Assembly: GCA_009784815.1 (NCBI GenBank)
Contig: WQXN01000003.1
Coordinates: forward strand, 1 to 63,854
Direction: 5' to 3'
From: Alphaproteobacteria bacterium
Lineage (GTDB): Bacteria > Pseudomonadota > Alphaproteobacteria > Rs-D84
DNA: 63,854 bases
Shown: in pieces, positions 5,972 to 25,444 of the stretch
Layout of the letters: every line of letters starts with the position of its first letter
Numbering within the stretch: the stretch's first letter is position 1
Program-made: the position numbers and the translations under genes
Notes under the pieces: model-generated
What the model was told of the DNA's origin: nothing
Databases searched by the model: none
The model's input: only the letters and a program-made list of their open reading frames with translations

Positions 5972-6244
5972 ATGCACCTGGAATTAAAATGGTGGATCCA
6001 AGTAATAGTGATCCCGATAATCGGAGCGCTATTCATGTGGATCTCGCGCTTAAAATCGCACATGGATCTTTCCGACGAGAAAATCCGCGCGCACTTTTCG
6101 AACATACATAAAGATCTTGCCGACTACAAACTTGACGTCGCGCGGACCTACGCCTCGATCTCTTATATCAAGGACGTCGAAGCCCGCCTGACCCACCACC
6201 TGCTTCGCATAGAACGGAAACTGGAAAAAGGAGAACCAAAATGA
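5972..6244 (+). CDS. Phage-cluster membrane protein, holin-like
   Basis: N-terminal TM helix, then YKLDVARTYAS..YIKDVEARLTHHLLRIERKL; ATGA overlap with the hydrolase gene. Confidence 0.6.
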   Translation: MHLELKWWIQVIVIPIIGALFMWISRLKSHMDLSDEKIRAHFSNIHKDLADYKLDVARTYASISYIKDVEARLTHHLLRIERKLEKGEPK

Positions 6245-6690
6245 CCCAAGCCCTGACCGCCGCGCGAACCGCGCTTAACCCCGCCGCACACCTGACCGTC
6301 GAAGACAATCAAGACCTCTCGCGTCGAACATTGTACCGTCTTGCGCGCATAATCTACGCGGAAACCCACGCGGTGCTGCCTGATGCCGAAGCGCTGGCAA
6401 GCATGATCGCGAATCTGCGGCGCGCGAATAGCGCGCTTGAAGACATATCGGAAGATGCCGACCTGTTCGAATGCCTGAATAAAAAATCGGAACGCCACGC
6501 GGACCTATTAATAAGGTACGACTCGCGCGAACTTCAAATGTGCCTGCGCACCCTGTCGCGCGCGTTAAGCGGAGTTCTAAAAGATTCGACTCGCGGCGCG
6601 GTGCGATTTCACCGTGCCCAGCTTCTGCCCGACTGGGCTACAAGCGTCGGCTCGGTTTCCGAAATCGGCAACCTGCACTTTTATATTTAA
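6241..6690 (+). CDS. Cell wall hydrolase, SleB/Hydrolase_2-like, phage type
   Basis: LARIIYAE (catalytic E position), FECLN, DSTRGAVRFH, PDWA, IGNLHFY. Confidence 0.75.
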   Translation: MTQALTAARTALNPAAHLTVEDNQDLSRRTLYRLARIIYAETHAVLPDAEALASMIANLRRANSALEDISEDADLFECLNKKSERHADLLIRYDSRELQMCLRTLSRALSGVLKDSTRGAVRFHRAQLLPDWATSVGSVSEIGNLHFYI

Positions 6691-6850
6691 TAATCAAAAA
6701 ACATAAGGCCGTCCGCAAATTCGATGAATAATCGTCCAATACCAAGAAACCCCGGGATGCGGTGTACGTCCAAGTACATAATTCCCGGGGTTTCGAAGCG
6801 CAGTGGACGATTAGGCGCGAATTTGAAAAGTGGCCAATATGTTTTTTACA
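6691..6850 (+). repeat. Long palindromic RPE-like element
   Basis: Core identical to 5215-5309 but with a different outer stem. Confidence 0.9.
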
Positions 6851-6867
6851 TTCAGTAAGACTAACTC

Positions 6868-7131
6868 ATGACTATAAATTCTGCTCTAAGCGGAGGATGC
6901 CTCCGCGGAAAAAAAACTTACATCACCGCAGTCACCGGGGTAATTTCGGCTATTGGAATGTACCTTGCCGGCGACGCGGATTTATTTTTAACGCTGCATA
7001 CTATATTCCCGATGCTGGGAATGTTGTTTTTGCGCACAAGCATAAAGGAAAGAAAACATGACGAACGAAATTGCGATACCGGAAAAATTCAAAACTGCGA
7101 CGGGCGAAGCGAACCTCGAAGCGATACTTAA
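6868..7131 (+). CDS. Putative holin
   Basis: LRGKKTYI start typical of small phage holins, two TM segments; 3' end overlaps the scaffold gene and is uncertain. Confidence 0.5.
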   Translation: MTINSALSGGCLRGKKTYITAVTGVISAIGMYLAGDADLFLTLHTIFPMLGMLFLRTSIKERKHDERNCDTGKIQNCDGRSEPRSDT

Positions 7132-7672
7132 ATCCTACTCCGAACTTGAAAAAAAACTAAGCCAAGCTCCAAGCGCGCCGAAAGACGCCGCCGAATACGC
7201 GGCCCCCGGCTTTGGAGACAAAGACGACGACAATATAAGACAACAGTTTCTTGACATAGGCCTTACCAAAGACCAGGCCGAGAAAGTCTGCGCCCTTGCC
7301 GACTCTCTGATGAAGCCGATCGTAAGCGGTCTTATGGACGCTAACGGCGAAAGCTCCGAACTTGCCCAGCTGGAAAAGTTTTTCGGCGGCCCGGATAAAC
7401 TGGCGCCTGCATTGCAAGAGATCGAAGCGTTCGGGGCGAAATACCTGCCCGAAGACGCGTTCGAAACTCTCTGCTCGACGCATCAGGGAATCGTAAGCCT
7501 GTACAAGATGATGAAATCGCACGAGCCTGATATATCGACGAACAAGAACTCGTCGCAAAATTTATCCGAGAGCGAACTCAAAATAATGATGCGGGACCCG
7601 AAGTACTGGCGCGACCGCGATCCTGAATTCATACGTTCGATCGACACTGGATTCAAAAAACTATTTTCCTAA
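7058..7672 (+). CDS. Capsid assembly (scaffold) protein, T7 gp9-like
   Basis: IPEKF..G..NLEAILKSYSELEKKL at the N-terminus and MMRDPKYWRDRDP at the C-terminus. Confidence 0.75.
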   Translation: MTNEIAIPEKFKTATGEANLEAILKSYSELEKKLSQAPSAPKDAAEYAAPGFGDKDDDNIRQQFLDIGLTKDQAEKVCALADSLMKPIVSGLMDANGESSELAQLEKFFGGPDKLAPALQEIEAFGAKYLPEDAFETLCSTHQGIVSLYKMMKSHEPDISTNKNSSQNLSESELKIMMRDPKYWRDRDPEFIRSIDTGFKKLFS

Positions 7673-7810
7673 ATGTGATTAAAAAAATAAATACAAATTT
7701 TTTATCATTATTTTCACTTTTCTCTTTACTTGGATTTTTATTTTTATTATAATGCACATAAGGAGCAAACAAAAAGTTTGTTCTTCATAAAAAGAAAATA
7801 GGAGAAGAGG

Positions 7811-8041
7811 ATGTCATTGTTCTCAAAAAAGCCGGCTAAGAAAGTCGTCGCGAAAAAACCTGCTGCGAAAAAGGTTGCTGTAAAGAAACCTGCTGCGAAG
7901 AAGGTTGCCGCGAAGAAACCAGCCGTCAAAAAAGCTGCGGTTAAAAAATCGGTCGCCAAAAAAGTAGTCGCGAAGAAAGTCGTGGCGAAAAAGCCGGCCG
8001 TTAAGAAAGCCGTGAAAAAGAAAGTTGCGAAGAAAAAGTAA
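7811..8041 (+). CDS. Histone H1-like Lys/Ala-rich DNA-binding protein
   Basis: Tandem KKPAA/KKVAA pentapeptides; SD upstream and terminator at 8065-8088. Confidence 0.8.
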   Translation: MSLFSKKPAKKVVAKKPAAKKVAVKKPAAKKVAAKKPAVKKAAVKKSVAKKVVAKKVVAKKPAVKKAVKKKVAKKK

Positions 8042-8127
8042 TTTTTCTTAGCGTTTCTAAATAGAAGGGCCACGGCCCTTTTATTTTTTGGCGGAAAAAT
8101 AAAAGACCCTGCGGGTCTTTAATTCTT

Positions 8128-8214
8128 TGGTGGGAGTGGCTGGATTCGAACCAGCTCAGGCATAAGCCAACAGATTTACAGTCTGCCCCGGCTCTCCAAC
8201 TCCGGCGCACGCCC
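8128..8214 (-). tRNA. tRNA-Tyr(GUA)
   Basis: Cloverleaf with long variable arm, CTGTAAA anticodon loop, GTTCGAATC, CCA. Confidence 0.95.
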
Positions 8215-8224
8215 AACGGTCGGT

Positions 8225-8263: not shown

Positions 8264-8558
8264 AAAATCAGACTGGTAGGTCATAGCGAGGCGGGTAACC
8301 GCCGCGAGGAAAGTCCGGACTGCAAGGAACAGAATAGCGGCTAACGGCCGCCGGGGGCGACCCCAGGACAAGTGCCACAGAGACGAGCCTATTAAGTTAG
8401 GGTGAAACGCGGTAAACTCTATTCGCAGCAATCTCAAATAGGACGGTGTCGTGCGTTCCTCACAAACCGTCGGGTAGAGAGCTTGACCCTGGCAGCAATG
8501 CCAAAGGCAGACGAATTATGACCCAAGACAGAATCCGGCTTACCGCCAGTCTGATTTT
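8264..8558 (+). ncRNA. rnpB: RNase P RNA, compact
   Basis: GAGGAAAGTCCGG and ACAGAATCCGGCTTA (P4), AGTGCCACAG, GGTAAAC; P1 AAAATCAGACTGG/CCAGTCTGATTTT. Confidence 0.95.
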
Positions 8559-8614
8559 TCCTATCTATAAAACCCTTCGTTGACGAGGGGCGGCGTTGTG
8601 GTATAATTGCGCTG

Positions 8615-9931
8615 ATGAAGAAAATAATTCTGGCTTTGGTGGTGGCGTGCTTGTCAGGCGCAGCGAATGCGGCGCAGTCGTTGCGCATAATTCGCGACAC
8701 TGAAATCGAAGTCGTAATGCAAAAGCTTGTCGAACCAATAGCGCGGGCCGCAAAGATTCCTGACGGCCGCCTGCGCGTTCACATAGTTCACGGCAACGAT
8801 CTTAACGCTTTCGTATCCAGCGGCGAGGATATTTACATTTACGCCGGAACAATAATGAAAATCGAAAATCCAAACGCCGTTCAAGCCATAGTCGCTCACG
8901 AGCTTGGTCACATAATCGGCGGCCACTATGTCAACCGAATGGCTAGAATAGAAAAAGAAATGATCGGCGCGATCATAATGCAAAGCCTTGGAGTGGCTTT
9001 GATCGCTGCAAACCCCGAGATGGGAACCGGGGTTATGATGGGCGCTCATGGAATCACACGCGCAAACCTTATGTCGTTTTCGCGCGATGAAGAACGGCAG
9101 GCGGATACTTTGGGGCTTGGTTTGATGAAAAGCGCGCGACTTCCGCTTGGCGGATTCGTCGAAATGATGGAGCTGTTGCAAAGCCGGAGCATTCACATCG
9201 AAGGATCGATCAACACGTATGGAATAAGCCATCCAACCACCACGGAACGGTTGATGAACGCGCGCGAGTGGATCAGCAAGCACGGCGGCCACGGCGGAAA
9301 ACTTCCCGATGATCTAGTCGCCGAGTACGCCATGGTGCGCGCAAAGCTGGTCGGGTATTTGCAGTCTGAAAAAGTCGTCCAAGACATGTATCCGACGCAG
9401 ACGCTTCCTTCCAAATATGCCCATGCCATTTCGGCTTTGCGAGGAGATCGGCTGACCAAGGCGCTGCAGCTGACCAACGAATTGGTTGCAAGCGATCCGA
9501 AAAATCCGTATTTCCACGAGTTGGTCGGAGACATACAGGTCAGACGCGGAAAATATTCCGAAGCGGTGGCCGCATATCAGAAGGCTTTGGAACTTCTTGA
9601 TATAGAATCCGCCCAGATAAGCGCGGCAATAGCCATGGCTTTGATCGAACGAAAGGGCAAAGGCGACGCCGAGGAAGCGGTGCGTATAATCAAACGCGCG
9701 CTCATCTTGGGCAAAGCGGAAGCTGCCAAGACTCCGTTTTTATATTTCGTTTTGGCGCGCGCGTACGCCGCCAAGAAAAAGCATGGTTTGTCAGATTGGG
9801 CCATGGCCGAGTATAATTGGATTATAAATAAAAAGCCCGAAGCGAAAAAATTCGCCGAGCGAGCAAAGCGAAATTTGGACGGCAATTCACCAGAATATCA
9901 AAAGGTCCAAGACATACTCGCCAAGAAATGA
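8615..9931 (+). CDS. M48 metalloprotease with TPRs, BepA/YfgC-like
   Basis: Signal peptide, IIRDTEIE, NAF, HELGH, FSRDEERQAD, SHP; TPR-like C-terminus. Confidence 0.88.
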   Translation: MKKIILALVVACLSGAANAAQSLRIIRDTEIEVVMQKLVEPIARAAKIPDGRLRVHIVHGNDLNAFVSSGEDIYIYAGTIMKIENPNAVQAIVAHELGHIIGGHYVNRMARIEKEMIGAIIMQSLGVALIAANPEMGTGVMMGAHGITRANLMSFSRDEERQADTLGLGLMKSARLPLGGFVEMMELLQSRSIHIEGSINTYGISHPTTTERLMNAREWISKHGGHGGKLPDDLVAEYAMVRAKLVGYLQSEKVVQDMYPTQTLPSKYAHAISALRGDRLTKALQLTNELVASDPKNPYFHELVGDIQVRRGKYSEAVAAYQKALELLDIESAQISAAIAMALIERKGKGDAEEAVRIIKRALILGKAEAAKTPFLYFVLARAYAAKKKHGLSDWAMAEYNWIINKKPEAKKFAERAKRNLDGNSPEYQKVQDILAKK

Positions 9932-10057
9932 AATTATTAAAAAAGAGATTTTATGAAAATCTGCAACCAGTATATTTTGATTTCTGTGTCGTGAATATGT
10001 AGCGTGCCACGTCGCCCCATAATACATAAAAAGCCCCACTTTTTCCAACTATTTATG

Positions 10058-10723
10058 CTATATCAGTTTAATCGGTTCTATTTTTATGTCATCAAAATTG
10101 CCACGAGTGTTTGGGACATCTTTTATATATTCCGGCTTGCCCATCATGTCTTCCAATATCAGTCGTTGCGATCTGTAATGCCCCTCGCCAAATGCCGCGA
10201 GTACAACATCGTATTTGTTCAATGCCGCCGCGATATTATTTACCATATATGGGTCGCGCCCGTGCAGATTTATTAAGTGCGAGAAGAAATTGTATTCGCC
10301 TTTCTTGACGCTTGGGCCGCCGCAAGACAAAGATTTTCGCAAATCTTCTTCGGTGAATTCACGGTCGGGGCGATGCTCTCTTAAAACAGCCAACGTTTCC
10401 TCATCAGATAAATCTGCAAAGACAACAGGCAACCCACGTTTAGCGGCAACGGCGGCAACATACGCCAAATTATTGCCATGAATTTCGCGAGGCAATAAAT
10501 CACGTCCAGAATTGCGATATTCCACCACAGCAATTTGCGGTTTGGCTGGCGATTTGTCCGAGAAACAAAAATCAGTCATATCATACGATTTATTCGCGCC
10601 GTGGTCTTCTGCGATATAAATAAGAGTTTTTCCGTCTTTTTTGAATACGGCTATATACGGATACCGTCCGACATTTTCAGACTCTTCCCATGTTTTGTAT
10701 AAATCATGATTAGGCACAAACAT
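10058..10723 (-). CDS. Hypothetical protein, AT-richer than neighbours
   Basis: 221-aa ORF with AAAGGA SD. Confidence 0.65.
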   Translation of the reverse strand: MFVPNHDLYKTWEESENVGRYPYIAVFKKDGKTLIYIAEDHGANKSYDMTDFCFSDKSPAKPQIAVVEYRNSGRDLLPREIHGNNLAYVAAVAAKRGLPVVFADLSDEETLAVLREHRPDREFTEEDLRKSLSCGGPSVKKGEYNFFSHLINLHGRDPYMVNNIAAALNKYDVVLAAFGEGHYRSQRLILEDMMGKPEYIKDVPNTRGNFDDIKIEPIKLI

Positions 10724-10961
10724 TTGATATCCTTTTATTTTTTATCGTTAACTACGAACATTATATCATACAACAGCAGACATATTTGTATTATTTAAGT
10801 GCCATCGCCGCTTGGTTGCAGAATATCTTGCACGACATTTCCCAAGTATTGAAATCATACACCTTTAATTGTTCCTACCATAACAACCCATCTCGCCCCT
10901 TGTCGCCCCATATTGCCCCGAAATCGATGGAAATAAAAACTCCCCTTTCGGGGAGTTGCAA

Positions 10962-11627
10962 TTACTCTCGGCTCCCGCTTAACATATAAGTCAGTTCTTT
11001 ATACAAACTAAGCACCGCAACCAGCGCCACGAACAACCCGGCTGTGATGTACAAAGTAGCGATCAGCAGGTTCATCATGGAAATCCCGACAAGCAGAGTA
11101 TTCGGTATTATCTTAAAAATGAACACACATCCAAGCAATCCGAATACTGCGCCTACTATCATGCTGCTTATCAAAGATTGCTTAACTACTCTCGGCATCT
11201 TTGGGCGTGCGGCGGCTGGCAGTCTCCAATTTACGAACATATAATGCATGGATATTACCAAAAACATCATAGGTATGAACGCAACCATGAATATCCTCGG
11301 AATTGTTGATATGCCGCCTACGATCCAGAAATACAACTTGTCGCCGATAGCCGGATAGAATTCCGCCTTTCCCGCGACCCAAGCCATGGGATACAACACC
11401 GCGACTACGACCGCGAATACGATCGACAAAGCGGCCCATATCCTAAGGAACCTGCGTCCTCCGACATACATGCCTATATTAACGAATTCGTTGCCGATAG
11501 TGGCCAAGGATTTTTCCGTCTTGTTGATTACGACCATCTTTGCGACCTTTGGCCTTGCTGCGGCAACCGGCCTTGACTTCAGCCCTATCTCTTTTGCTAT
11601 TGAATGTCTTTTTTCTTTTAATTTCAT
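10962..11627 (-). CDS. Hypothetical integral membrane protein
   Basis: Four TM segments; start MKLKE after GGAGAGGG; terminator at 10936-10958. Confidence 0.7.
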   Translation of the reverse strand: MKLKEKRHSIAKEIGLKSRPVAAARPKVAKMVVINKTEKSLATIGNEFVNIGMYVGGRRFLRIWAALSIVFAVVVAVLYPMAWVAGKAEFYPAIGDKLYFWIVGGISTIPRIFMVAFIPMMFLVISMHYMFVNWRLPAAARPKMPRVVKQSLISSMIVGAVFGLLGCVFIFKIIPNTLLVGISMMNLLIATLYITAGLFVALVAVLSLYKELTYMLSGSRE

Positions 11628-11757
11628 AACCCTCTCCTTTCCTCTTAATCCCAAGCCTACCGCATTCTTCGAACGAAAGTCAAGAAGGAAAAAAGTCTTC
11701 TGCTGAACTATTCGCTTCGCGCAAAGCGAATAGTTTAACACAACACCGGACAATCGA

Positions 11758-11789
11758 TCGCGCCGTAGTTCGCAAGAACCAAGGCGGAT
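11758..11789 (+). repeat. Mini-hairpin repeat TCGCGCCGTAGTTCGCAAGAACNAAGGCGGAT
   Basis: Near-identical copies at 56022 and 60011. Confidence 0.8.
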
Positions 11790-11873
11790 GACCCGACTAC
11801 CAACCCGTAACTGCCGGCGCTTTACGCACAACCAGCACTACGCAAAATCAACCCTCAAAAAAAAGGAAACAAT

Positions 11874-12692
11874 ATGTCTATTCACATAGAAAAAGCATTT
11901 GTTAAACAATTCGAAGCGGACGTGCACCTGGCCTACCAGCAAATGGGCACCAAGCTTCGCTCGACCATTCGCAGCAAAAGCGGCGTGATCGGAAGCTCGA
12001 CCACATTCCAGCGCGTCGGCAAAGGCTTGGCCAACACCAAGTCCCGCCACGGTCTGGTGCCGGTTATGAACTTAAACCACGAACCGATCGAATGTCCCCT
12101 AAGCGATTACTACGCGGGCGACTGGGTCGACGCTTTGGATGAACTGAAAACGAACATCGACGAGCGACGCGTGGTGGCATCAGCCGGAGCCTACGCATTG
12201 GGCAGAAAAACGGACGAGCTTATCATAAGCGCGCTTAACACGGCGAACCAGGAAATCGGCGACTACGACTCGGGCCTGACCAAGGAATTGGTCCTGGAAG
12301 CGATCGGCGTTTTGAATAAAAAAGACGTTCCGGACGACGGCCGCCGTTTCGCGGTAGTCGGAGTAAAACAGTGGAACGACCTTCTGTCGATGGAAGAATT
12401 CACTTCCGCGGAATACGTCGGCGACAACCTGCCGTTCGTATCCGGCACCGAAACCAAGAAATGGATGGGCGTGATCTGGGTGCTTCATAACAGCCTCCCG
12501 GGTTCAAGCGATGAAACCGACTGCTTCATCTATCACTCGTCGGCGATCGGCCATGCCTGCGGTCAGGACGTCAAGTCCGACATCAGCTGGCACGGCGAGC
12601 GTGCAGCGCACTTCATATCGAACAGCATGAGCCAAGGCGCGTGCCTGATCGACGCAGAAGGCATCGTCCGCGTCAAATGCGGCGAAGAATAA
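11874..12692 (+). CDS. Major capsid protein, T7/BPP-1-like podovirus type
   Basis: AFVKQFEADVHLAYQQMGTKLR, YAGDWVDALDELK, AYALGRKTDELII, GACLIDAEGIV; strong SD. Confidence 0.88.
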   Translation: MSIHIEKAFVKQFEADVHLAYQQMGTKLRSTIRSKSGVIGSSTTFQRVGKGLANTKSRHGLVPVMNLNHEPIECPLSDYYAGDWVDALDELKTNIDERRVVASAGAYALGRKTDELIISALNTANQEIGDYDSGLTKELVLEAIGVLNKKDVPDDGRRFAVVGVKQWNDLLSMEEFTSAEYVGDNLPFVSGTETKKWMGVIWVLHNSLPGSSDETDCFIYHSSAIGHACGQDVKSDISWHGERAAHFISNSMSQGACLIDAEGIVRVKCGEE

Positions 12693-12711
12693 TCAACCAA
12701 AGGAGTAAATT

Positions 12712-12945
12712 ATGGCATATCAGAACAAAAACATGTCTGTGATCGCGTACGCGAACGGCTTTACGCTTTGGCATTACGCCGCTAACGACCCGATAGCTAC
12801 GGTCAACGGCAACGGGTACTTCATACCCGCGATCTCGATGATCAAAGCCGGCGACATGCTGTTGGTGTCCGATTCCAACGGAGGAGGAAGCCTAAGAACT
12901 TTCCGTTTCTCAGGCGGAGTTCCGACAACCACAGCCCTCGTCTAA
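12712..12945 (+). CDS. Small conserved phage protein after the capsid gene, possible decoration protein
   Basis: MSVIAYANGFTLWHY motif; AAGGAG SD. Confidence 0.65.
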   Translation: MAYQNKNMSVIAYANGFTLWHYAANDPIATVNGNGYFIPAISMIKAGDMLLVSDSNGGGSLRTFRFSGGVPTTTALV

Positions 12946-12951
12946 CATAAA

Positions 12952-12988
12952 AGCCCAGATCCCTCGGCCTGCCCGGGGTATCTGGGCC
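12952..12988 (+). terminator. Hairpin between head and tail genes
   Basis: GCCCAGAT..CC..GG..ATCTGGGC stem. Confidence 0.5.
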
Positions 12989-13010
12989 TAATTAAAAAAA
13001 GGACCCCTCC

Positions 13011-13385
13011 ATGCCAAACAAACTCGAAATCATCAATACCGCGTTGCTCAAAATCGGCGAAAACCCGATCGAATCTCTGACCGATCAATCGGCAAGCGCG
13101 ATCCTCGCCGACAAACTGTTCGAACCTGTGACTCGCAGCCTGCAGGACTCGTATAAATGGGAATTTATCGCGACGAAAGTCGAAGACTATCCCGACTATT
13201 TCTGCGGCGCGCTTGTCCTGAAACTTGCGGAAGAATTCTGCATACCGCTAACCGACAACCAAGCGCTTATGCGAACCCTGCGCGATCTATTTAAGGACGA
13301 ACTGAAACAAGCCAAACTCACCGATCTCCGCATATCTGGCCGCGCTCCGGTGAAAAATTTTTCTCTTATAAACGAGAGGTACTGA
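13011..13385 (+). CDS. Tail tubular protein A / adaptor, T7 gp11-like, shortened
   Basis: LEIINTALLKIGENPIESL, W.F, YFCGALVLKLAEEFCIPLT. Confidence 0.75.
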   Translation: MPNKLEIINTALLKIGENPIESLTDQSASAILADKLFEPVTRSLQDSYKWEFIATKVEDYPDYFCGALVLKLAEEFCIPLTDNQALMRTLRDLFKDELKQAKLTDLRISGRAPVKNFSLINERY

Positions 13386-13386
13386 A

Positions 13387-15117
13387 ATGAACGCCGGAAA
13401 ATTTACGCAAACCAATTCCAGCTTTTCGTTAGGCGTGGTGTCGCAGGACTTCTCAGGCCGCGGAGACCTTAAAACAGCGGCTCACGGCCTGTCGAAACTG
13501 GAAAACATGGACATAATATCGTCCGGCGGAATCAGCAGGCGCGCGGGCACAAGAGTCCTCGCCGCAAACCTGCCGGATGACGCAAAGATAATCCCTATGC
13601 GCCTTCGGTCCGGCGACGAATACATCATAGCCTTCGGCGACCGCACTATGCGCGTGTACAAGGACGGGGTCCAGCAAACCTCAAGAACTTCGCCCTGGTC
13701 GTCCGCCCAGCTCCCGAATATTCAAACGGCCCAGCTGGGAGACATGATGATTTTAACCCATCCCGACACCCACCCCCATCGTCTGCTTCTGAATATGGTG
13801 TGGCTTTTCGGTCCGCTAAGTTTTGCGATCGTGGACAACTGGTACCGCGAGCCTTACTTCAAATTCGAAAACTCGAACTATCCGTTCACGTTGCAAAACA
13901 TAACTGTGCCGGGCGCGACAAGACAAGCGCTGCTAACCGCGACCCACGATAACTGGACGCCGGAATCCGTGGGTTCCCGTATGCGCTTCGGCAACATCGA
14001 GTGGTGGATTTCGGAATACGTCAGCCCGACCCAAGTAAAAGTCTTTTCGAACAGCGCGTCTCCGGCTATGCCGACGGGAACGGTTACGGACTGGTCCGAA
14101 AGCGTGTTCAGCGACCGCCGCGGCTGGCCCAAAAGCATCGCCCTTCACCAGAACCGGCTTGTCTTCGGCGGAACAAAATCATTTCCGAACTTCGTATGGA
14201 TGTCCCGCACGGGGGACCACATGAACTTTGACGCGGGAACCGGTCTTGATAACCAAGCGGTGATCCTGTCCCTGCTTGCCGGCCGTCCTCAAAGCATCAC
14301 ATCTATCCAAAGCGGCGAGAATCTGGAAGTGCTGACCGACATGGGCGAATGGAGCATCAAAGGCGCGCCAATCACGCCAAGCGAAGCCCTGATCAGACAG
14401 CACACGGACATAGGATCAAGCATGGATATTCACGTACCTCCAAGCCGCGTCGACGGCGCGACGATATTCATCGGAAGAACCGGAAACGAACTGCGCGAAC
14501 TAAGGCTGGACAACCTAAGCGACTCGTACAGCGCGACGGATCTGTCGACCTTATCGCGCGACATCATGGGTACGGCGACGGGCATGACCTACCACCAGGA
14601 AACGAAAAGACTGCTGATAGTGATGCAAGACGGAACTATGGCCGTGCTGAAAAAAGACGACAACCTGGAAATACTTGGCTGGTCGACATACAAAACCGAC
14701 GGAGAATTCAAAAGCGTCGCGGTATCCAAGGGCCAAGTCCTTGCGGCCGTGAAACGCGGATCGGAAACTTTTATGGAAATCTTTGATGAAAATAAGATGA
14801 CGGACGGCGGCGCGAACTTTGCGTTCGAACATAAGGCGTCCGCAATGCCTATATTCGCGGACAGCGCCAAGGCCCGACTTGCGAAAGTAACGAAATGGAA
14901 AGCGCGGCTGAAAGACGCCGGCGCCCTGTCGGTGAAAATCAACGGCAACGCGGCTGAAGTGATACCGCTTCCCGAAACGCCATTCACGGGCGACGTTTCG
15001 GTGAACTCGCTTGGCACTACGCCGAACGGCCAATCTCCGCTGTGGGAAATCATAGGCAGCGAACCGCAACCTCTAACAGTGCTTTCGATCACGATCGAAG
15101 GCCGCCTCTCAACCTAA
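13387..15117 (+). CDS. Tail tubular protein B / nozzle, T7 gp12-like
   Basis: NSSFSLG, GGISRRAG, RGWPKSIALHQNRLVFGG, WMSRTGDHMNF, GWSTYKTDG, PQPLTVLSI. Confidence 0.82.
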   Translation: MNAGKFTQTNSSFSLGVVSQDFSGRGDLKTAAHGLSKLENMDIISSGGISRRAGTRVLAANLPDDAKIIPMRLRSGDEYIIAFGDRTMRVYKDGVQQTSRTSPWSSAQLPNIQTAQLGDMMILTHPDTHPHRLLLNMVWLFGPLSFAIVDNWYREPYFKFENSNYPFTLQNITVPGATRQALLTATHDNWTPESVGSRMRFGNIEWWISEYVSPTQVKVFSNSASPAMPTGTVTDWSESVFSDRRGWPKSIALHQNRLVFGGTKSFPNFVWMSRTGDHMNFDAGTGLDNQAVILSLLAGRPQSITSIQSGENLEVLTDMGEWSIKGAPITPSEALIRQHTDIGSSMDIHVPPSRVDGATIFIGRTGNELRELRLDNLSDSYSATDLSTLSRDIMGTATGMTYHQETKRLLIVMQDGTMAVLKKDDNLEILGWSTYKTDGEFKSVAVSKGQVLAAVKRGSETFMEIFDENKMTDGGANFAFEHKASAMPIFADSAKARLAKVTKWKARLKDAGALSVKINGNAAEVIPLPETPFTGDVSVNSLGTTPNGQSPLWEIIGSEPQPLTVLSITIEGRLST

Positions 15118-15133
15118 TCCAAAAGGAAAAACC

Positions 15134-15508
15134 ATGTCCCAATACTCGAACGAAATCCAAGACATCATCGGTCTTAACAATAAAAAAGAAAATAAAAAAA
15201 TCCAATCCGAACGCGCGAAAGTCCTGGCTCAAATAGCCGAAGACAAGCGCACAAGATCGAACCTGGTGAAAAAAGCCCTGGCCGCGCAAAAGGCTAAATT
15301 CGGAGCCGGCGGCAGCGAAGGCAAATCCGACAGCGACCAAGCGGTGCTGAAACGTATCGAAGAGGAAACCGCAGAAGCCCTGGACGCCCAAATCGAGGCC
15401 AAGGAAGACAAGCTTTCGAAAATAAAGCGTCCGGCCCGCACCCGCGCCCCGCGCAACCTCTTAAAAAAACTTCTTAAACAATTTGAATCCGGTTTCTTAA
15501 ACGAATAA
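15134..15508 (+). CDS. Putative internal virion (ejection) protein
   Basis: Follows the nozzle gene; helical, with QKAKFGAGG...SDQAVL motif. Confidence 0.5.
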   Translation: MSQYSNEIQDIIGLNNKKENKKIQSERAKVLAQIAEDKRTRSNLVKKALAAQKAKFGAGGSEGKSDSDQAVLKRIEEETAEALDAQIEAKEDKLSKIKRPARTRAPRNLLKKLLKQFESGFLNE

Positions 15509-15544
15509 TAAATCACCCCGCACCCAGCGGGGTTTTTATAAACC

Positions 15545-15621
15545 TGGCGACCCGAGCAGGATTCGAACCTGCGACCTACTGATTAGAAATCAGTTGCTCT
15601 ATCCAGCTGAGCTACCGGGTC
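15545..15621 (-). tRNA. tRNA-Arg(UCU)
   Basis: Cloverleaf, loop TTTCTAA, GTTCGAATC, CCA. Confidence 0.95.
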
Positions 15622-15691: not shown

Positions 15692-16291
15692 ATGAAAAAT
15701 GAATCCTCGGCACTTGCCTTTATAGACGGCTGGAACAAGCTGCTTAATATGACGACTCCGCCGCACCACGCGGAAATGTCGCGGTTTTTCGTGCAAACGG
15801 TGTTTGGAAAAAATCCTCGCGGGCTGATGATGTGCTTCCGTCACTCGGGCAAATCGTCAGTAGTGGGAATTATGACGGCCTGGCTTCTGACGGCGCGCCC
15901 CGAAAGCAGAATCCTGATTTTATCGGCGGAACAAACACTATCGTCCCGCATGGTCTCGCACATAAAAAACATAATCGAAAATCACCCAAGCTGCAAAGGC
16001 ATGACTCCGGAAATAAAAAAAGAATGGGCCTCGCACCGCATCACTATCAACCGCCCGCTAAGCCACCGCGAGCCGTCAGTAATCTGCCAAGGAATACACG
16101 GCAACATAACGGGCATGCGCGCGGACCTGGTAATCTGCGACGACGTGGAAGTGCCCAACACCTCGAACACGGGCCAAAAGCGCGCCAAATTACGCGAACG
16201 CCTCCGCGAACTGGATTTTATACTTTCTCCAGGCGGAGCGATGCTCTACCTAGGCACGCCCCACGCCTCGGACACTATCTACCAAGTATAG
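15692..16291 (+). CDS. Terminase large subunit, N-terminal ATPase half
   Basis: Walker A FRHSGKS, Walker B DLVICDDVE, coupling motif LGTPH; ends just after DTIY. Confidence 0.85.
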   Translation: MKNESSALAFIDGWNKLLNMTTPPHHAEMSRFFVQTVFGKNPRGLMMCFRHSGKSSVVGIMTAWLLTARPESRILILSAEQTLSSRMVSHIKNIIENHPSCKGMTPEIKKEWASHRITINRPLSHREPSVICQGIHGNITGMRADLVICDDVEVPNTSNTGQKRAKLRERLRELDFILSPGGAMLYLGTPHASDTIYQV

Positions 16292-16295
16292 CAAT

Positions 16296-16345
16296 TAACC
16301 CAAAAACCATTCGGTGTGTCGCGACACACCAAATGGTTTTTGTCC
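16296..16345 (+). repeat. Internally deleted copy of the long element (termini only)
   Basis: CCCAAAAACCATTCGGTGTGTCGCGACACACCAAATGGTTTTTGTCC matches the two ends of the 34219 copy. Confidence 0.88.
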
Positions 16346-17917: not shown

Positions 17918-17935
17918 AATCCTTCCTTCCCCTGC

Positions 17936-17972
17936 TGTCGTCCCGGACTCTGATCCGGGATCTCCTTATCCT
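17936..17972 (+). repeat. TGTC-tagged REP
   Basis: TGTCGTCCCGG-ACTCTGAT-CCGGGATCTCCTTATCCT; paralog at 21727. Confidence 0.75.
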
Positions 17973-18040
17973 CGACTCCTCAGCTTGTGACATCCTACCC
18001 CATAAATTTCACATTTCAACCCCTAAATAATGATAAAAAA

Positions 18041-18327
18041 ATAACCCAAAAACCACTAACGAAGTCGAAACCTAGGATAGACTAAATAAAAAATTTCAAA
18101 AAATCCTATCTCGGTCGCGTTTGCAAGGATAGATCATCCAACACCAAGTATAAATAATAATCCCAAAAACCATTAGGTGTGTCGCGACGTCGAGAAAAAA
18201 TCGCACAATACCAAGAAAGACCGACCGCCATAGGCCTTTATGGCTGCCACGGCGTGTCGGTCTTTCGAAGCGTAGTGGGTGATTTTATCCGACGGACGAA
18301 AAACACACCAAATGGTTTTTGTCCTTA
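18041..18327 (+). repeat. Stack of two left-end fragments plus one full long element
   Basis: Full copy 18161-18327 differs from 34219-34385 at three positions. Confidence 0.88.
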
Positions 18328-20832: not shown

Positions 20833-20897
20833 AGAATACTCCCTCTATTACTAAACATTTTATCACATTTAGCCCAAGCCCGCAAGAGAAGAATAAG

Positions 20898-21710
20898 ATG
20901 TCCCCCTTTCTAAGAAATTACTCTTTGCTGAAAATTCCGATCCTCAGGGAGGACGGCAAACCGGCCTGGCCGGAATTATTTCCCGAAGAAGAAATCCAGC
21001 GCATAAGGGAAACGGTCGGCCCTCGTCACTTCATGGCGCAAATGATGATGGAGTTCATAGCCCCGGAACGTTCCCGCCTGGACCCGGCGGCATTGATCGA
21101 ATACGATCTGAACTTCGACGCAAGAAACTCCAAACTTGGTGAAATGCTGACCACGGGCTTTTCGGCTTACTGGGACCCAAGCTCGGCTCGCGGCAATGCT
21201 GACGGCAGCGTCTGCGCGCTTGTCCTGTTTCACGCGCCTACCAAGCGTGCCTTCATACACGACATAATGTATATGCGGGTAAGCGATCACGACCTCCACC
21301 CTATGGCGACCCAAGCGGGCCTTGTTCTGGATTTTCTGAACAAACATATGATAAGACACCTAAGCGTGGAAACTAACGGTCTTGGCAACGCGCTGCCTGA
21401 AATCCTGCGCAGCCTTGCGGCGGCAAGAAACCAACCTCTGACGATTAATAGGATTACAAGCCGCGAAAGGAAAGAAATCCGCATAATAGACGCGCTCGAA
21501 CCTCTGCTTGCTACCGGCCGCCTCTTTATCAACAAGCCCTTGCTCAACAGCGAGCTTATGGCCGAAATGCAGGACTGGACTCCGGTTGGAGCGAACGTTG
21601 ATGACGGCATAGACGCGGTCGCGGGCGCCCTAAGATCGCAACCGATAGCAACCCGCACCCGCTCGCAAATATTCCACTCCCGCACCGCGAACACGGAATT
21701 TAAGATTTAA
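20898..21710 (+). CDS. Terminase large subunit, C-terminal RNase H-like nuclease half
   Basis: G.PAWPELF, FMAQMM, WDPS, DGSV, VETNGLG, KEIRIIDALEP, DDGIDAVAGAL. Confidence 0.85.
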   Translation: MSPFLRNYSLLKIPILREDGKPAWPELFPEEEIQRIRETVGPRHFMAQMMMEFIAPERSRLDPAALIEYDLNFDARNSKLGEMLTTGFSAYWDPSSARGNADGSVCALVLFHAPTKRAFIHDIMYMRVSDHDLHPMATQAGLVLDFLNKHMIRHLSVETNGLGNALPEILRSLAAARNQPLTINRITSRERKEIRIIDALEPLLATGRLFINKPLLNSELMAEMQDWTPVGANVDDGIDAVAGALRSQPIATRTRSQIFHSRTANTEFKI

Positions 21711-21726
21711 TCCTTAACTCCCCCGC

Positions 21727-21763
21727 TGTCATCCCGTACTGCGACACGGGATCTCCTTATCCT
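21727..21763 (+). repeat. TGTC-tagged REP
   Basis: TGTCATCCCGT-ACTGCGAC-ACGGGATCTCCTTATCCT. Confidence 0.75.
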
Positions 21764-21810
21764 AGCAAACAAACATTGCCCACATAATTTTTATATGCTA
21801 TAATACTTCC

Positions 21811-22278
21811 ATGAAAACAGAATACGGCAGATCATTACTGGAAATGGTTGGCGTCCTTGCAATCTCTGGAATACTCGCGGCGGCGGCGTTCCGCACATTC
21901 CAAGTGATACAAACGCGCCAGCACCGCGCGATCGCCGAAGACCAACTGCGCGAACTTGCTAACAACGCGAAAATCCTGTTCTCGGGCCGCCAAAGTTTTT
22001 CGGGGATTTCGACTAACTACCTGATAAAAGCGGGCGCGATCAAACATGATCGTTTTAGATTAGGAGGGCCGTTCACAGCAATGGCGCTTCCCAATACCCG
22101 CGACGGGATAAGATCGTTCGAAATCACGGTGCCGGACCTCAGCAATTCCGACTGCCTATATTTTGCGACGAAAAGATTCGACTTTGTGCACAGCGTAAAA
22201 GTCAACGGGTTCGAGCAAACCCCAACTTCCTACTGCCAACCCGGCACCACCAACGAACTAACCTTTATAATTAGATAA
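21811..22278 (+). CDS. Type IV pilin-like protein
   Basis: Class III signal G|RSLLE plus hydrophobic helix; C-terminal Cys pair; TTGCCC-N17-TATAAT-N6-ATG. Confidence 0.8.
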   Translation: MKTEYGRSLLEMVGVLAISGILAAAAFRTFQVIQTRQHRAIAEDQLRELANNAKILFSGRQSFSGISTNYLIKAGAIKHDRFRLGGPFTAMALPNTRDGIRSFEITVPDLSNSDCLYFATKRFDFVHSVKVNGFEQTPTSYCQPGTTNELTFIIR

Positions 22279-22336
22279 AATAAACAACTTGCAAAATCGC
22301 ATTTTAAGTATAAAATACACGAAACGGTGAGCTTCC

Positions 22337-23386
22337 ATGGTAAAAATAATTTCAATGTTCAATCACAAAGGCGGCGTCAGCAAAACTACGACCTGCTTTA
22401 ATCTTGGTTGGTCTTTGGCCCAAAAAGGATACAGAACGCTATTAGTTGATGCTGATCCACAAAGCAACTTAACATCGTTATCTCTGTCATTACCCGATGA
22501 AGATTCATTCGAGCGTCTTTACGAGAACAAAAATTCAAACGATATATTTTCCCTGGCAACAAGTGTTATGGCCAATAAAGTCGTTGAAGGCCCGAACTCT
22601 ACAATAATACCAACTGCTCAAGCTAACTTATTTTTACTACCCGGAAACTTGCAAATAGAAGGTTTTTCGAATCAAATTACTGTTGCCCTAAAGATGGCAG
22701 GCGGGATATTTCCAGAAACAAGGAACTACCCAGGGCTGTTATCGTTTGCCTTTAAGCGACTAGCCGACATACATAATCTTGATTTTATAATAATAGACAT
22801 GGCTCCTAGCCTCAGTGGATTAAATGAAGTTCTGCTTATGGGCTCTGATTTTTTCATTGCTCCTTGTAGTCCGGACTTCTTTTCAGAAATAGCAATTAAA
22901 AATTTAGCCAAGATAATCCCCGAATGGCATGCGGAAATTAAAGGATTTGCGTCAAATTATCCTCTTTCTAATACGCCAAAATTTTTGGGAATAATCCAAC
23001 AAAAATACCGGCCTCGCAGAAAAAAAGACTCCGACGATAGAAATCGTCCAGCAGAATCATTTCAAAAATGGATCGATCGCATAAGAAAATCTACTAATTC
23101 TATTTTAGTTCCTCAGCTATCTACTTTAGGATTAGCTATATCTCCCGAAAAATTTAGAGAAGTCATTGCCGACAATGAAGCCTACGACATTGCATATATT
23201 TCTGACTTCAACTCTTTGGTAGCCGTATCCCAGATGGAGAACAAACCCGTATTTGAGTTAACGGAAGAAGATATAAAATCCATGTCAAATCGTTTTGGAA
23301 AATCAATGGAATCAGCATTAAATGACGTGCAAAAGTTTAAAGACACTTTTTCAAAACTTGCTGATAATATCTTAGCGCTTACGTAA
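22337..23386 (+). CDS. ParA/Soj-family ATPase, orphan and AT-rich
   Basis: NHKGGVSKTT, VDADPQSNLT, IIDMAPSL, PCSPDFFS. Confidence 0.88.
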   Translation: MVKIISMFNHKGGVSKTTTCFNLGWSLAQKGYRTLLVDADPQSNLTSLSLSLPDEDSFERLYENKNSNDIFSLATSVMANKVVEGPNSTIIPTAQANLFLLPGNLQIEGFSNQITVALKMAGGIFPETRNYPGLLSFAFKRLADIHNLDFIIIDMAPSLSGLNEVLLMGSDFFIAPCSPDFFSEIAIKNLAKIIPEWHAEIKGFASNYPLSNTPKFLGIIQQKYRPRRKKDSDDRNRPAESFQKWIDRIRKSTNSILVPQLSTLGLAISPEKFREVIADNEAYDIAYISDFNSLVAVSQMENKPVFELTEEDIKSMSNRFGKSMESALNDVQKFKDTFSKLADNILALT

Positions 23387-23460
23387 AGTTTTTATTCACA
23401 TTCCATAAAAACCATCGCCGCTTTCGCGGCGATTTTCATTTTCAACCAAAAGGATAAATA

Positions 23461-24816
23461 ATGAACACACTAGACCTTTATAAAAAGGCCATATCCGAGC
23501 GCGCCGAATGGAGCGCCCGCTGGACCAACTGCAAAAAATATACGCTTCCCGAAAGCGAATCCGACCAAGCCCAACTGTTTGACTCAACGGCAAGCGACGC
23601 GGCGGAATTACTGGCGGGCGCGATGTTCGGCATGATCACTCCGCCGGAAAGCGAATGGCTGAACCTGACGAACGACAATCCCGAATGCATGGCGGAACAG
23701 CAAGCGCAAAGCCTGCTGCGCCAGCATCTGAACAACTCGAACTTTTACACGACCGCGCACCAATGCTATCTGGATTTGGTGGTGCTTGGAACCGCCTGCC
23801 TGCTCTTCTCGGAAAACCCGATCGGCAGCGCAAGCGCATTCAACTTCCAAGCCCTGCCGATGAAGGATATAGCGATACTCCGCGACGCGTCCGACAACGT
23901 AAGCTCGGTGTTCTACACGACGTCTATGACGGCGCAAAGCCTGACGCAAAAATATCCGACATTCACCCTGCCCTCGGCGATTAAATCGAATCCGGAAACG
24001 CAAATACGAATAATCCAAAGCGTCGTGAATACGAACGGAAAATGGATTATGACATCGTGGGCGGACCTTGAAGGCAAATTTGAAAACAACACGCTCGAAA
24101 CGGGCGAGTTCAAAACAAATCCGTTCATAATATTCAGATGGTCTGCTGCCACGGGCGAGACCTACGGACGAAGCCCGATAATGCGGGCCTTACCCGACAT
24201 CAGAACCGCGAACAAAGTTGTGGAACTGATCTTAAAAAACGCAAGCATCGCGGCGGCGGGAATCTGGCAGGCGGATGACGACGGAGTGATCAACCTCTCG
24301 AACATAAATCTGACTCCCGGCGCGATAATCCCGAAAGCCGTCGGCTCTCAGGGCCTGACGCCGCTCCGTAGCGGAGCGGATTTCGACGTCTCGCAACTGG
24401 TGCTAAGCGACCTACGTGCGCGCATCAGGACGGCGCTTCTTACCGACAAATTATCGGCTATGACCGACAAGGTCATGACGGCGACGGAAGTGATCGCAAG
24501 GAACATGGATATGCTTCGGGTGCTTGGCGCGACCTACGGAAGAATGCTGTTCGAAATGATGACGCCATTAGTTGACCGCGGATTATATATCCTCTCGCGC
24601 CGCGGCCTGATTTCGGATGTAAAACTGGGCGGTGAAACGAAACTAAGATGCACTTCTCCGATTTCGAAAATATCGAACTCGGAACACGCGGCCCAAGTCA
24701 TGACCTGGATGGCGGAAGCTACCGCCGCGGGCATGGGCCACAAGATTAATTCTGACGCGGCCTTTAACTACATTGCCGACACTCTCCACATACCGAAACA
24801 ACTGATCGAGGCGTAA
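23461..24816 (+). CDS. Portal (head-tail connector), T7 gp8/Bbp21-like
   Basis: FDSTASDA, ITPPESEW, YLDLVVLGTA, RW...GETYGRSP, ADDDGVIN, MTATEV. Confidence 0.9.
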   Translation: MNTLDLYKKAISERAEWSARWTNCKKYTLPESESDQAQLFDSTASDAAELLAGAMFGMITPPESEWLNLTNDNPECMAEQQAQSLLRQHLNNSNFYTTAHQCYLDLVVLGTACLLFSENPIGSASAFNFQALPMKDIAILRDASDNVSSVFYTTSMTAQSLTQKYPTFTLPSAIKSNPETQIRIIQSVVNTNGKWIMTSWADLEGKFENNTLETGEFKTNPFIIFRWSAATGETYGRSPIMRALPDIRTANKVVELILKNASIAAAGIWQADDDGVINLSNINLTPGAIIPKAVGSQGLTPLRSGADFDVSQLVLSDLRARIRTALLTDKLSAMTDKVMTATEVIARNMDMLRVLGATYGRMLFEMMTPLVDRGLYILSRRGLISDVKLGGETKLRCTSPISKISNSEHAAQVMTWMAEATAAGMGHKINSDAAFNYIADTLHIPKQLIEA

Positions 24817-25014
24817 ATGGAGAAAAACTTCGCTCAATGCTTTTCGACAAATACCGGAGCGCAGGTGCTAAAACACCTGCGCTCTATAACGATCGAAAGA
24901 TACCTGGGACCGAACGCGACCGAGGCCCAGCTCCGAAGCCTCGAAGCCCAGCGCGCTCTGGTGCATCAAATCCTAAACCTTGTCGAAAGGGGGAAAAATG
25001 CAAACAAGCCCTAA
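24817..25014 (+). CDS. Bbp19-like phage protein
   Basis: F.T..G.QVLKHLR...LEAQRALVHQI pattern directly after the portal gene. Confidence 0.7.
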   Translation: MEKNFAQCFSTNTGAQVLKHLRSITIERYLGPNATEAQLRSLEAQRALVHQILNLVERGKNANKP

Positions 25015-25444
25015 TGGCCTAACCCTCATAAAAAAACACGAAGGCCTCCGCCTGACCCGCTACAAATGCCCGGCTAACTTATGGACGATCGGCTACGGCC
25101 ACCTGATCCAGCCGGGCGAAATTTTCGACGAACCGTTGGCAAAGGCCGCGGCCTCGGCCCTCCTGAAAAAAGACGTACGCATAGCGGAAGACGCTATAAA
25201 ACGAAACGTCATTGTGCCGCTGAATCAAAATCAGTTCGACGCGCTTGTGTCGTTGATATTTAATATCGGCGCAACCGCATTCCGTAATTCTACAGCGCTA
25301 AGATACGTGAACAATCCCGACTTCAAAAGCGGAACTTACCCGACGATGGAACAAGCGTGGAAAGCCTGGAACCGCGGAGGCGGCAGAATCCTGCCGGGCC
25401 TGGTCGCCCGCCGCTCCGACGAATGGAATCTTTATAATTCCTAG
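24998..25444 (+). CDS. Phage lysozyme (GH24)
   Basis: IKKHEGLRL.RY.CPANLWTIGYGH, LNQNQFDALVSLIFNIG, GLVARRSDE. Confidence 0.92.
   Translation: MQTSPNGLTLIKKHEGLRLTRYKCPANLWTIGYGHLIQPGEIFDEPLAKAAASALLKKDVRIAEDAIKRNVIVPLNQNQFDALVSLIFNIGATAFRNSTALRYVNNPDFKSGTYPTMEQAWKAWNRGGGRILPGLVARRSDEWNLYNS

Follow-up and report, generated by a model that had tools for sequence, protein, structure and literature searches.

The locus described here raises the question of why genes for the head, short tail, DNA packaging and lysis functions of a podovirus should lie scattered among host genes in a bacterium with a reduced genome. It is found on contig WQXN01000003.1 (C3) of assembly GCA_009784815.1, a metagenome-assembled genome (MAG; G000 below) of 12 contigs and 827,946 bp from termite gut that is approximately 87% complete and belongs to the alphaproteobacterial order Rs-D84. 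The window analysed is the whole of this contig (63,854 nucleotides, 63.9 kb). Bacteria of this order, which includes Enterousia, are described as probable obligate symbionts or parasites that do not respire, have reduced genomes and probably depend on a partner, and in the part of that account drawn on here the words phage, capsid and gene transfer do not occur (PMC12306168). The gene set is of phage identity, vertically inherited across the order and probably across much of the Alphaproteobacteria, under purifying selection and lacking in autonomy. It is probably a domesticated, podovirus-derived viriform resembling a gene transfer agent (GTA), that is, an old, chromosomally fixed and host-inherited module for head, short tail, packaging and lysis. 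Particle assembly, random packaging and delivery are inferred.

A reading made from the sequence alone (the sequence-only reading) had described a podovirus-type gene set in five blocks on the plus strand, and this was borne out by matches to Pfam, PHROG, NCBIfam and PDB entries. The virion-type genes span 19.5 kb in these five blocks, all on the plus strand, and are listed with the matches found (aa, amino acids; TM, transmembrane):

5972..6244 (+), small membrane protein with one N-terminal TM helix and a coiled coil, holin-/spanin-like (phrog_29007, 1e-22)
6241..6690 (+), putative cell-wall hydrolase, endolysin candidate (phrog_938 endolysin, 1e-5; PF07486, 1.5e-3, below the cut-off)
7058..7672 (+), T7-type capsid assembly (scaffold) protein (PF05396, 4.8e-9)
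11874..12692 (+), major capsid protein, HK97 fold, HTVC010P/T7-like podovirus type (PF19821, 1e-69; PDB 9eg4_A, 3e-31)
12712..12945 (+), conserved small beta protein of 77 aa, after the capsid gene (phrog_18004, 5e-14)
13011..13385 (+), tail tubular protein A (adaptor, gp11-like), 124 aa (phrog_394, 6e-22; PF17212, 1.4e-5)
13387..15117 (+), tail tubular protein B (nozzle, gp12-like) (phrog_376, 5e-78; PDB 8ck1_A 'Tail Nozzle', 7e-24)
15134..15508 (+), charged coiled-coil protein of 124 aa, for which the evidence of gp14-like identity is transitive only
15692..16291 (+), ATPase half of the large terminase (TerL) (NF033889 positions 5-189 of 500, 4e-65)
20898..21710 (+), lid and RNase-H-like nuclease half of TerL (NF033889 positions 220-499, 9e-27; PF22530, 8e-9)
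23461..24816 (+), portal, head-to-tail connector, gp8-like (PF12236, 7.5e-92; PDB 9efk_A, 4.5e-17; T7 portal 6r21, 1e-11)
24817..25014 (+), Bbp19-like small protein (PF25181, 8e-10)
24980..25444 (+), T4-type lysozyme (PF00959, 7e-38; phrog_7, 2e-50)

NCBIfam names only the two terminase halves and, weakly, a pilin among the window genes. The blocks are interrupted by the genome's only tRNA-Tyr gene, rnpB, a protease with M48 and TPR domains, two minus-strand genes of no assigned role, tRNA-Arg(tct) and dnaB; the rest of the content between blocks consists of an 834-aa secreted protein, the pilin and a ParA-like gene. The sequence-only reading had named rnpB, both tRNA genes, dnaB, the protease and the pilin at these places, correctly in each case, and the ParA-like gene (22337-23386) is to be added to them. 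The dnaB gene is the sole copy in the window genome and is single-copy in 40 of 41 relatives, and an essential gene therefore sits inside what was formerly a single terminase gene.

An arrangement of this kind could be an artefact of MAG assembly or binning, given a draft of 12 contigs that is 87% complete, and a chimeric assembly was what the sequence-only reading had named as a danger to its own claim. Window DNA was found in two termite-gut metagenome runs (X1 and X2; bulk metagenomes, contigs only), which may themselves be the source data of the MAG. Logan contigs, built from run X2 by a second assembler, bridge 6792-8197, 8338-12146, 12117-18173, 18300-20113 and 20090-25500 with no differences, and depth is even, at approximately 19x in both runs over all covered parts of the window. 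These bridging contigs are the weaker argument. The arrangement is taken to be real chiefly because many genomes of the family, obtained from other samples, show the same interleaving of phage and host genes (dnaB lying between the two halves of TerL, for instance), and an artefact is scarcely credible.

Retention of the set was investigated in 41 genomes of relatives from six families. A match was identified to the capsid in 35 of these, to the portal in 34, to the ATPase half in 35 and to the nuclease half in 34, in single copy and with frames open nearly everywhere. On the scale of the order, the capsid was found in 243 of 260 genomes that are at least 85% complete, in 211 of 224 high-quality genomes and in 23 of 24 genera, so that presence in relatives is near-universal and not patchy, patchiness being one of the outcomes that would have counted against the sequence-only reading. 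The best 80 of more than 557 genome contigs matching the capsid profile are gut MAGs titled Alphaproteobacteria, Rickettsiales or 'Candidatus Enterousia'.

The set was also found to follow the phylogeny of its hosts. Identity to the window protein is 77-83% within the genus, 70-79% within the family and 64-69% within the order for the capsid; 75-79%, 51-63% and 42-47% for the portal; and 76-84%, 53-67% and 43-56% for DnaB. Mantel correlations with DnaB distances (21 genomes, six families) were 0.73 for the capsid and 0.87-0.89 for the portal, both TerL halves, the nozzle and the scaffold, with none of 2000 permutations as high. Mean p-distance was 0.29 for the capsid versus 0.44 for DnaB, the capsid being the slower-evolving of the two. 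A tree of concatenated element proteins recovers host families f1 (support 100), f3 (100) and f2 (93) as clades, has subclades in common with the DnaB tree and needs a minimum of five changes of family label, a figure matched by none of 200 shuffles.

Ratios of nonsynonymous to synonymous substitution (dN/dS; Nei-Gojobori method, Enterousia-type loci, pairs with 0.05<dS<1) were estimated roughly and lie far below 1 for every virion-type gene examined, from 0.05 to 0.27: portal 0.047 (13 pairs), capsid 0.057 (226 pairs), TerL ATPase half 0.061 (8 pairs), TerL nuclease half 0.076 (3 pairs), nozzle 0.087 (4 pairs), small protein 0.11 (55 pairs), gp14-like protein 0.12 (9 pairs), adaptor 0.16 (46 pairs), Bbp19-like protein 0.18 (22 pairs), hydrolase 0.20 (9 pairs) and scaffold 0.27 (59 pairs), with 0.037 (7 pairs) for the dnaB control.

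Gene order, in contrast to gene content, changes across the families of Rs-D84. Family f1 has membrane protein, hydrolase and scaffold; then capsid, small protein, adaptor, nozzle and gp14-like protein; then the ATPase half; then dnaB in either orientation; then the nuclease half and pilin; and finally the portal and Bbp19-like gene. The nuclease half is placed after the portal in f3, the two terminase genes adjoin in f2, f4 and f5 (200-600 bp apart) and the nozzle is placed after the hydrolase in f6. The view that the set was shuffled along with host genes and yet maintained thus holds, with approximately 10 kb of virion-type genes (about 1% of the genome) kept in genomes of 0.7-1.1 Mb.

The two terminase halves seen by the sequence-only reading at 15692-16291 and 20898-21710 are indeed complementary, covering positions 5-189 and 220-499 of NF033889. 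Alignment with unsplit orthologs (487-501 aa) shows that families f1, f2 and f4 have the break at one and the same residue, immediately behind the GTPH coupling motif, which suggests a single split event at the base of the order. Walker A, Walker B and GTPH are kept in the ATPase half and the three acidic nuclease motifs in the nuclease half; wherever it is found among the relatives, the ATPase half is a frame of approximately 200-250 aa. In a predicted complex, the first strand of the nuclease half is placed beside the strand preceding Walker A of the ATPase half. The docking score was 0.88 against 0.00 for the best control, runs agreed in at least 97% of contacts and partner pLDDT (predicted local distance difference test) was 80. 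The mark for docking was reached by 58 of 80 solved complexes and by 2 of 110 mismatched pairs; as these are halves of one fold and T7 TerL has been solved, the pass may reflect likeness only and not proven binding.

A prophage remnant in slow decay, inactive and kept by chance or by linkage to essential genes, might be expected to show a split TerL, a shortened adaptor, loss of the fibre and of the small terminase (TerS), and absence of the whole set from some genomes, all of which are seen. Set against this are the frames that stay open in nearly all genomes at the dN/dS values above, a capsid slower than DnaB, the upkeep of some 10 kb across 23 of 24 genera with genomes this small, and the catalytic motifs of both TerL halves, kept since a single ancient split. 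Such a remnant is consequently regarded as very improbable.

Where the set came from was examined beyond the order in 401 genomes drawn evenly from the Alphaproteobacteria, using the capsid profile with a cut-off of E<=1e-10. Matches were found in 90 of the 401 genomes and in 79 of the 336 of high quality (69 at E<=1e-74 by manual count of the table), almost always in single copy and with presence consistent within families. Comparison of 20 class-level loci of 20 kb, from hosts with genomes of 1.1-6.5 Mb and GC contents of 0.38-0.73, revealed a contiguous form of the element of approximately 11-15 kb. The order is portal, Bbp19-like protein, scaffold, capsid, small protein, adaptor (189 aa), nozzle, gp14-like protein, fibre, a small open reading frame (ORF), unsplit TerL, membrane protein and hydrolase, with a divergent S24 repressor and two genes of no assigned role before the portal and a holin with three TM segments (3-TM holin) at the end. 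The divergent S24-peptidase repressor was identified in 7 of the 20 class loci and in 12 of 31 IMG/VR loci, a TerS-sized ORF (approximately 100 aa) in 10 of 74 loci searched and the 3-TM holin (Pfam GTA_holin_3TM) in 10 loci. The two conserved genes between repressor and portal (orf194 and orf147 of locus L222) have no Pfam match and fall only into unnamed clusters of the ESM Atlas. Of the 20 loci, 17 contain TerL and just 10 the portal, so splitting into two loci is not peculiar to Rs-D84. The Rs-D84 set is a reduced and rearranged derivative of this contiguous element, which is spread over much of the class.

The flanks of the contiguous form are ordinary host genes (dihydroorotate dehydrogenase, GroEL, lysyl-tRNA synthetase, Lnt, MacB, Na/H exchanger). 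Eight of the 20 class loci, from seven families, have pyrD next to the lysis end, and this suggests one old chromosomal site. GC content of the capsid gene tracks that of dnaB from 0.40 to 0.70 (r=0.96). Mantel correlations with DnaB at class level (0.47-0.82, with at most 11 of 2000 permutations as high) are looser than within the order, and the element and DnaB trees share a deep split between Rs-D84, f113, f63 and f112 and the other families (support 100 and 99), together with several shallower groups.

Outside Rs-D84 at least, the element could still be a mobile parasite, either a helper-dependent satellite or a mini-phage integrating near pyrD, of which the Rs-D84 copies would be a stranded derivative. 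Compact clusters of 11-15 kb with a CI-like S24 repressor would suit such a parasite, as would a gene order that is circularly permuted between loci (for example L161 versus L182) and class-level Mantel correlations that are just moderate. So would the public records: 582 of 597 pattern-matched stretches on 'viral contigs' of IMG/VR encode a relative of the capsid, several of them beginning exactly at the S24 gene, and a 5,084-bp fragment with the canonical gene order has been deposited from human faeces under the label 'Bacteriophage sp.' (MT838907.1, L192). However, no integrase, replication or excision gene was found in the four class loci with annotated flanks, and a search of 72,556 plasmid records gave no match except one distant Legionella record. 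The GC content is fully host-like, copies are single, presence is consistent within families, the deep splits are those of the DnaB tree, and in Rs-D84 the genes are interleaved with essential ones. Mobility is accordingly judged improbable. The IMG/VR stretches mean that hundreds of chromosomal loci have been filed as viral contigs, and these would inflate prophage counts for gut Alphaproteobacteria.

On the window contig itself no tyrosine recombinase was found, in agreement with the sequence-only reading, which saw no integrase; serine recombinases and transposases were not specifically searched for. Elsewhere in the genome, a 403-aa tyrosine recombinase (G000:C1:151533-152027) adjoins tRNA-Thr (C1:150706-150779) and possibly belongs to another integrated element.

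Comparison with cultured phages identified Pelagibacter phage EXVC031P Hodr (OQ414635.1) as the nearest, with 43% identity in the capsid and 32% in the portal; other HTVC010P-type pelagiphages and Vibrio podophages are at approximately 31%. Hodr also has homologs of the nozzle, the Bbp19-like protein and the fibre N-domain, and the same order of portal ... scaffold, capsid, small protein, adaptor, nozzle and fibre. The window TerL halves gave no tblastn match to Hodr at E<=1e-3. HTVC010P-type pelagiphages are described as having genomes of 34-36 kb with replication and often integrase modules (PMC8477408), whereas no replication or integrase module was seen in the element. An intact HTVC010P/T7-like prophage would be contiguous over approximately 35-40 kb with a replication module, and with an integrase if temperate, and this is not what the window holds. 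One IMG/VR locus of 34,955 bp (L171), in which the capsid is 57% identical, a fibre N-domain is present and portal, adaptor and nozzle are matched only weakly, is possibly a genuine phage near the ancestor.

Among known systems, the likeness to RcGTA is considerable. Both consist of phage-derived head, tail, packaging and lysis genes (11-15 kb) in single copy without replication or integration functions, both are inherited by the host across a large alphaproteobacterial clade under purifying selection, with extra pieces possible at other loci, and some class-level copies carry the Pfam 'GTA_holin_3TM' holin. They differ in ancestry, which is siphovirus-like for RcGTA and podoviral, of T7/HTVC010P type, here (PF19821 capsid, PF12236 portal, adaptor and nozzle), and in the S24 repressor beside the contiguous form. 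A head-tail cluster including PF13547, by which the RcGTA family is recognised, was not found: the marker (GTA_TIM) gave no match in the window genome, the control being positive in Caulobacter only. Across the class sample, PF13547 was found in 32 of 401 genomes, none of which is among the 90 capsid carriers, where 7.2 would be expected (hypergeometric P 2e-4, not corrected for phylogeny).

Capsid-forming satellites of the cf-PICI type are likewise small chromosomal elements with their own capsid, portal and terminase; they carry an integrase and replication genes and borrow their tails from a helper. The present element differs in having its own adaptor and nozzle, in the lack of any integrase or replication gene seen and in its interleaving with essential genes in Rs-D84, and the combination of integrase, own replication initiator and helper tails was not found.

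In morphology the closest analogue in print is FpGTA of Faecalibacterium prausnitzii, which is described as the first podovirus-like GTA-like element and shares with the present one a gut bacterium as host, a GTA-like and probably short-tailed nature and encoding in more than one locus (PMC12946183). That element, according to the part of the account used here, is from one genus of Firmicutes and has experimental particles, proteomics and packaged DNA of 8.4-8.9 kb (PMC12946183), whereas the present element is alphaproteobacterial, extends from order to class and has a split TerL. The comparison with FpGTA is one of descriptions, and against both FpGTA and RcGTA the present set is known from its genes alone. 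What was found agrees with a GTA or viriform on two counts, namely virion, packaging and lysis genes of phage origin that are inherited vertically in the chromosome, and no means of autonomous replication, integration or excision. No description of the gene set was found in the literature searched, in which subscription journals and supplementary tables were not covered.

The course of events may be envisaged as follows. The ancestral form would have been the contiguous cluster of approximately 11-15 kb that survives in other Alphaproteobacteria. In Rs-D84 this would have been broken up by rearrangements and incoming host genes, a single break would have turned TerL into an ATPase gene and a nuclease gene, TerS, the S24 domain and the greater part of the fibre would have disappeared, and the remaining genes would have been kept by selection in genomes of less than 1 Mb. 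At work, the genes would be switched on in a small number of cells; scaffold, capsid and portal would build a procapsid; the two-chain terminase would load it with host DNA; adaptor and nozzle would close the particle; and the membrane protein, together with hydrolase or lysozyme, would lyse the cell. Filling is proposed not to be sequence-specific, since no TerS is recognisable. Particles so released would serve as a gene transfer agent or as some related viriform.

Traces of the lost parts were identified in Rs-D84. Other families of the order keep a gene of 216-237 aa with the fibre N-domain only. The window genome contains five stand-alone helix-turn-helix (HTH) proteins of 80-114 aa that share 44-51% identity with the DNA-binding domain of the S24 repressor (C2:83641-83985, C1:175568-175849, C4:44872-45132, C4:29583-29825 and C6:9407-9652 of G000), and in two other genera of the order an HTH gene lies approximately 1.5 kb from the hydrolase. 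Five such paralogs are an unusual expansion for a genome of 828 kb. Large internal virion proteins were not found in the window genome, and a gp14-like query from the contiguous form gave no BLAST match in the whole of it at E<0.01.

Several observations weigh against a working GTA-like particle. Searching the whole window genome by tblastn (E<0.01) gave no TerS, fibre N-domain, 3-TM holin, either upstream gene or S24 domain, and the receptor-binding part is therefore missing or unrecognised. The window adaptor has been shortened by an internal deletion, to 124 aa versus approximately 172-189 aa in other genera. By-eye inspection upstream of the five blocks gave no shared motif linking them; a consensus scan of promoters and terminators, with 28 promoter-like sites versus 19.8 expected and 44 terminator-like sites versus 29.9, likewise gave nothing linking the blocks. 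The nuclease half was found in none of three genomes of family f6, one of them 99% complete, even by profile search. Genome G011 (98% complete) is without capsid, portal and both TerL halves, its dnaB having no adjoining nuclease half, and three of four searched genomes of its genus (g9) are without the capsid; the set is therefore dispensable, being missing as a whole from some near-complete genomes. The dN/dS ratios are rough, because dS is near saturation (medians 0.5-0.93) and pairs are few for several genes, though none is near 1. Active temperate phages, too, can show purifying selection and divergence that tracks the host. A head of T=7 size, if that is what is built, would have room for the full 19.5-kb region (or for the 11-15 kb of the contiguous form), unlike that of RcGTA. 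Finally, particles, packaged DNA, expression and transfer are predictions only.

Some of these points would equally suit a module that is domesticated and functional but serves a use other than gene transfer, such as kin-directed release of DNA or cell contents by lysis, a particle directed against partner or competitor cells, or interference with related infecting phages. The same evidence of conservation fits such a use, as do the lack of a recognisable fibre or receptor-binding protein and of TerS in the window genome and the failure to find the nuclease half in family f6, and hosts described as probable symbionts or parasites could favour a role in host interaction (PMC12306168). Against it, the constrained portal, adaptor, nozzle and pair of TerL halves with their catalytic motifs are what a DNA-filled tailed particle needs, and exceed what a lysis or decoy role would require. 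A distribution complementary to that of RcGTA also fits functional equivalence, although it may reflect clade history only. A use of this kind is held to be rather unlikely, though not negligibly so, and the GTA-like viriform remains the reading preferred here.

The individual genes differ in how far they are shared. The 5972..6244 gene is the first of the lysis pair, and its homologs follow TerL in class-level clusters and are also present in Rs-D84 loci; the hydrolase gene (6241..6690) is kept beside it class-wide. In the first block (5972-7672) the sequence-only reading had seen two holins, a hydrolase and a scaffold. The membrane protein, the scaffold and, by a weak match, the hydrolase stand, but the second holin (ORF 6762-7061) was rejected and is probably not a gene, because it has no hydrophobic segment, family match or conserved counterpart. 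The scaffold is present in the loci of 17 of 22 genomes of the order. The model of the small beta protein had a pLDDT of 90.5, yet gave no Foldseek match in PDB at E<=0.001. The 15134..15508 product is probably a diverged gp14-like internal virion protein; it and the class-level gp14-like protein match the same ORF (locus L263, genome G029), the class-level protein itself matching PF24072 T7_gp14 weakly (7e-4, below the cut-off). The Bbp19-like gene always lies directly after the portal, also in phage Hodr and class-level clusters, and the lysozyme was found to be confined to the window's genus among the loci compared (by tblastn, L011 and L012 only of L011-L030).

At 5926-5938 (+), after a promoter-like site and ahead of the start of the first lysis gene, the window has a GC-rich hairpin with a run of seven T behind it. 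This is a possible leader terminator, which would make antitermination control conceivable.

Genes of host or uncertain membership next to and between the blocks are as follows:

7811..8041 (+), very basic 76-aa protein rich in Lys and Ala, its translation consisting almost entirely of AKKP/AKKV repeats
8268-8558 (+), rnpB (RNase P RNA), the full 367-position bacterial type A model being matched in just 291 bases, that is, a shortened form
10962-11831 (-), membrane protein with a basic N-terminus, by sequence features, adjoining the capsid gene
18328-20832 (-), 834-aa Cys-rich protein that carries a signal peptide and has no family match, its gene separating dnaB from the nuclease half
21811..22278 (+), type IV pilin-like protein with a prepilin motif and N-terminal helix
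22337-23386 (+), ParA-like ATPase between pilin and portal (phrog_164, 1e-48)

Tandem 15-nt repeats lie at 7849-7992 within the AKKP-repeat gene. Genes of this type (71-169 aa) directly follow the scaffold in families f1 and f3, and same-position ORFs are found in loci L011, L013, L014, L016, L018, L020-L024 and L103. The product resembles histone H1 and may be a nucleoid protein, or else a component of the module that condenses DNA; its membership is uncertain. The pilin gene keeps its place beside the nuclease half in families f1, f2, f4 and f5 (L011, L012, L025, L027-L030); it may be a host gene and is likewise of uncertain membership. The ParA-like gene is probably a recent insertion, because it has no homolog in 20 loci of relatives and lies in a low-GC stretch (0.44).

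The 834-aa Cys-rich protein has its sole homolog among the loci compared (33% identity) in a single congeneric genome; it was considered as a fibre candidate and rejected for want of a family match, of homologs beyond that one relative locus and of likeness to the fibre N-domain. Membrane proteins similar in size and build to that of 10962-11831 were observed between scaffold and capsid on the strand of the cluster in families f2 and f3 (L021-L024, L028-L030), and its only tblastn homolog is a membrane protein of f4 (L029).

RcGTA is not the sole vertically inherited virion gene set in the Alphaproteobacteria. A broader proposal, put forward tentatively and at somewhat less than even probability, is that of a second ancient viriform lineage in this class: a T7/HTVC010P-like podovirus domesticated before many families diverged, sited beside pyrD under an S24 repressor, inherited by the host and complementary to RcGTA. 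Its genes would now form, in Rs-D84, a dispersed regulon whose terminase consists of two chains and which still produces particles loaded with DNA, a route of recombination for these tiny and probably partner-dependent bacteria. If particles are made, a short-tailed phage would have been domesticated independently, with an age and breadth comparable to those of RcGTA, in lineages where the RcGTA marker was not found, and this would change the assumed breadth of host-owned particles for DNA transfer. It would offer a natural experiment in convergent domestication, of a siphovirus and of a podovirus within one class, the two excluding each other among the 401 genomes sampled, and would mean that a terminase has functioned in two separate chains ever since one ancient split. 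It would also explain why bacteria with genomes of 0.7-1.1 Mb, otherwise shedding nearly everything, spend approximately 1% of the genome on virion genes.

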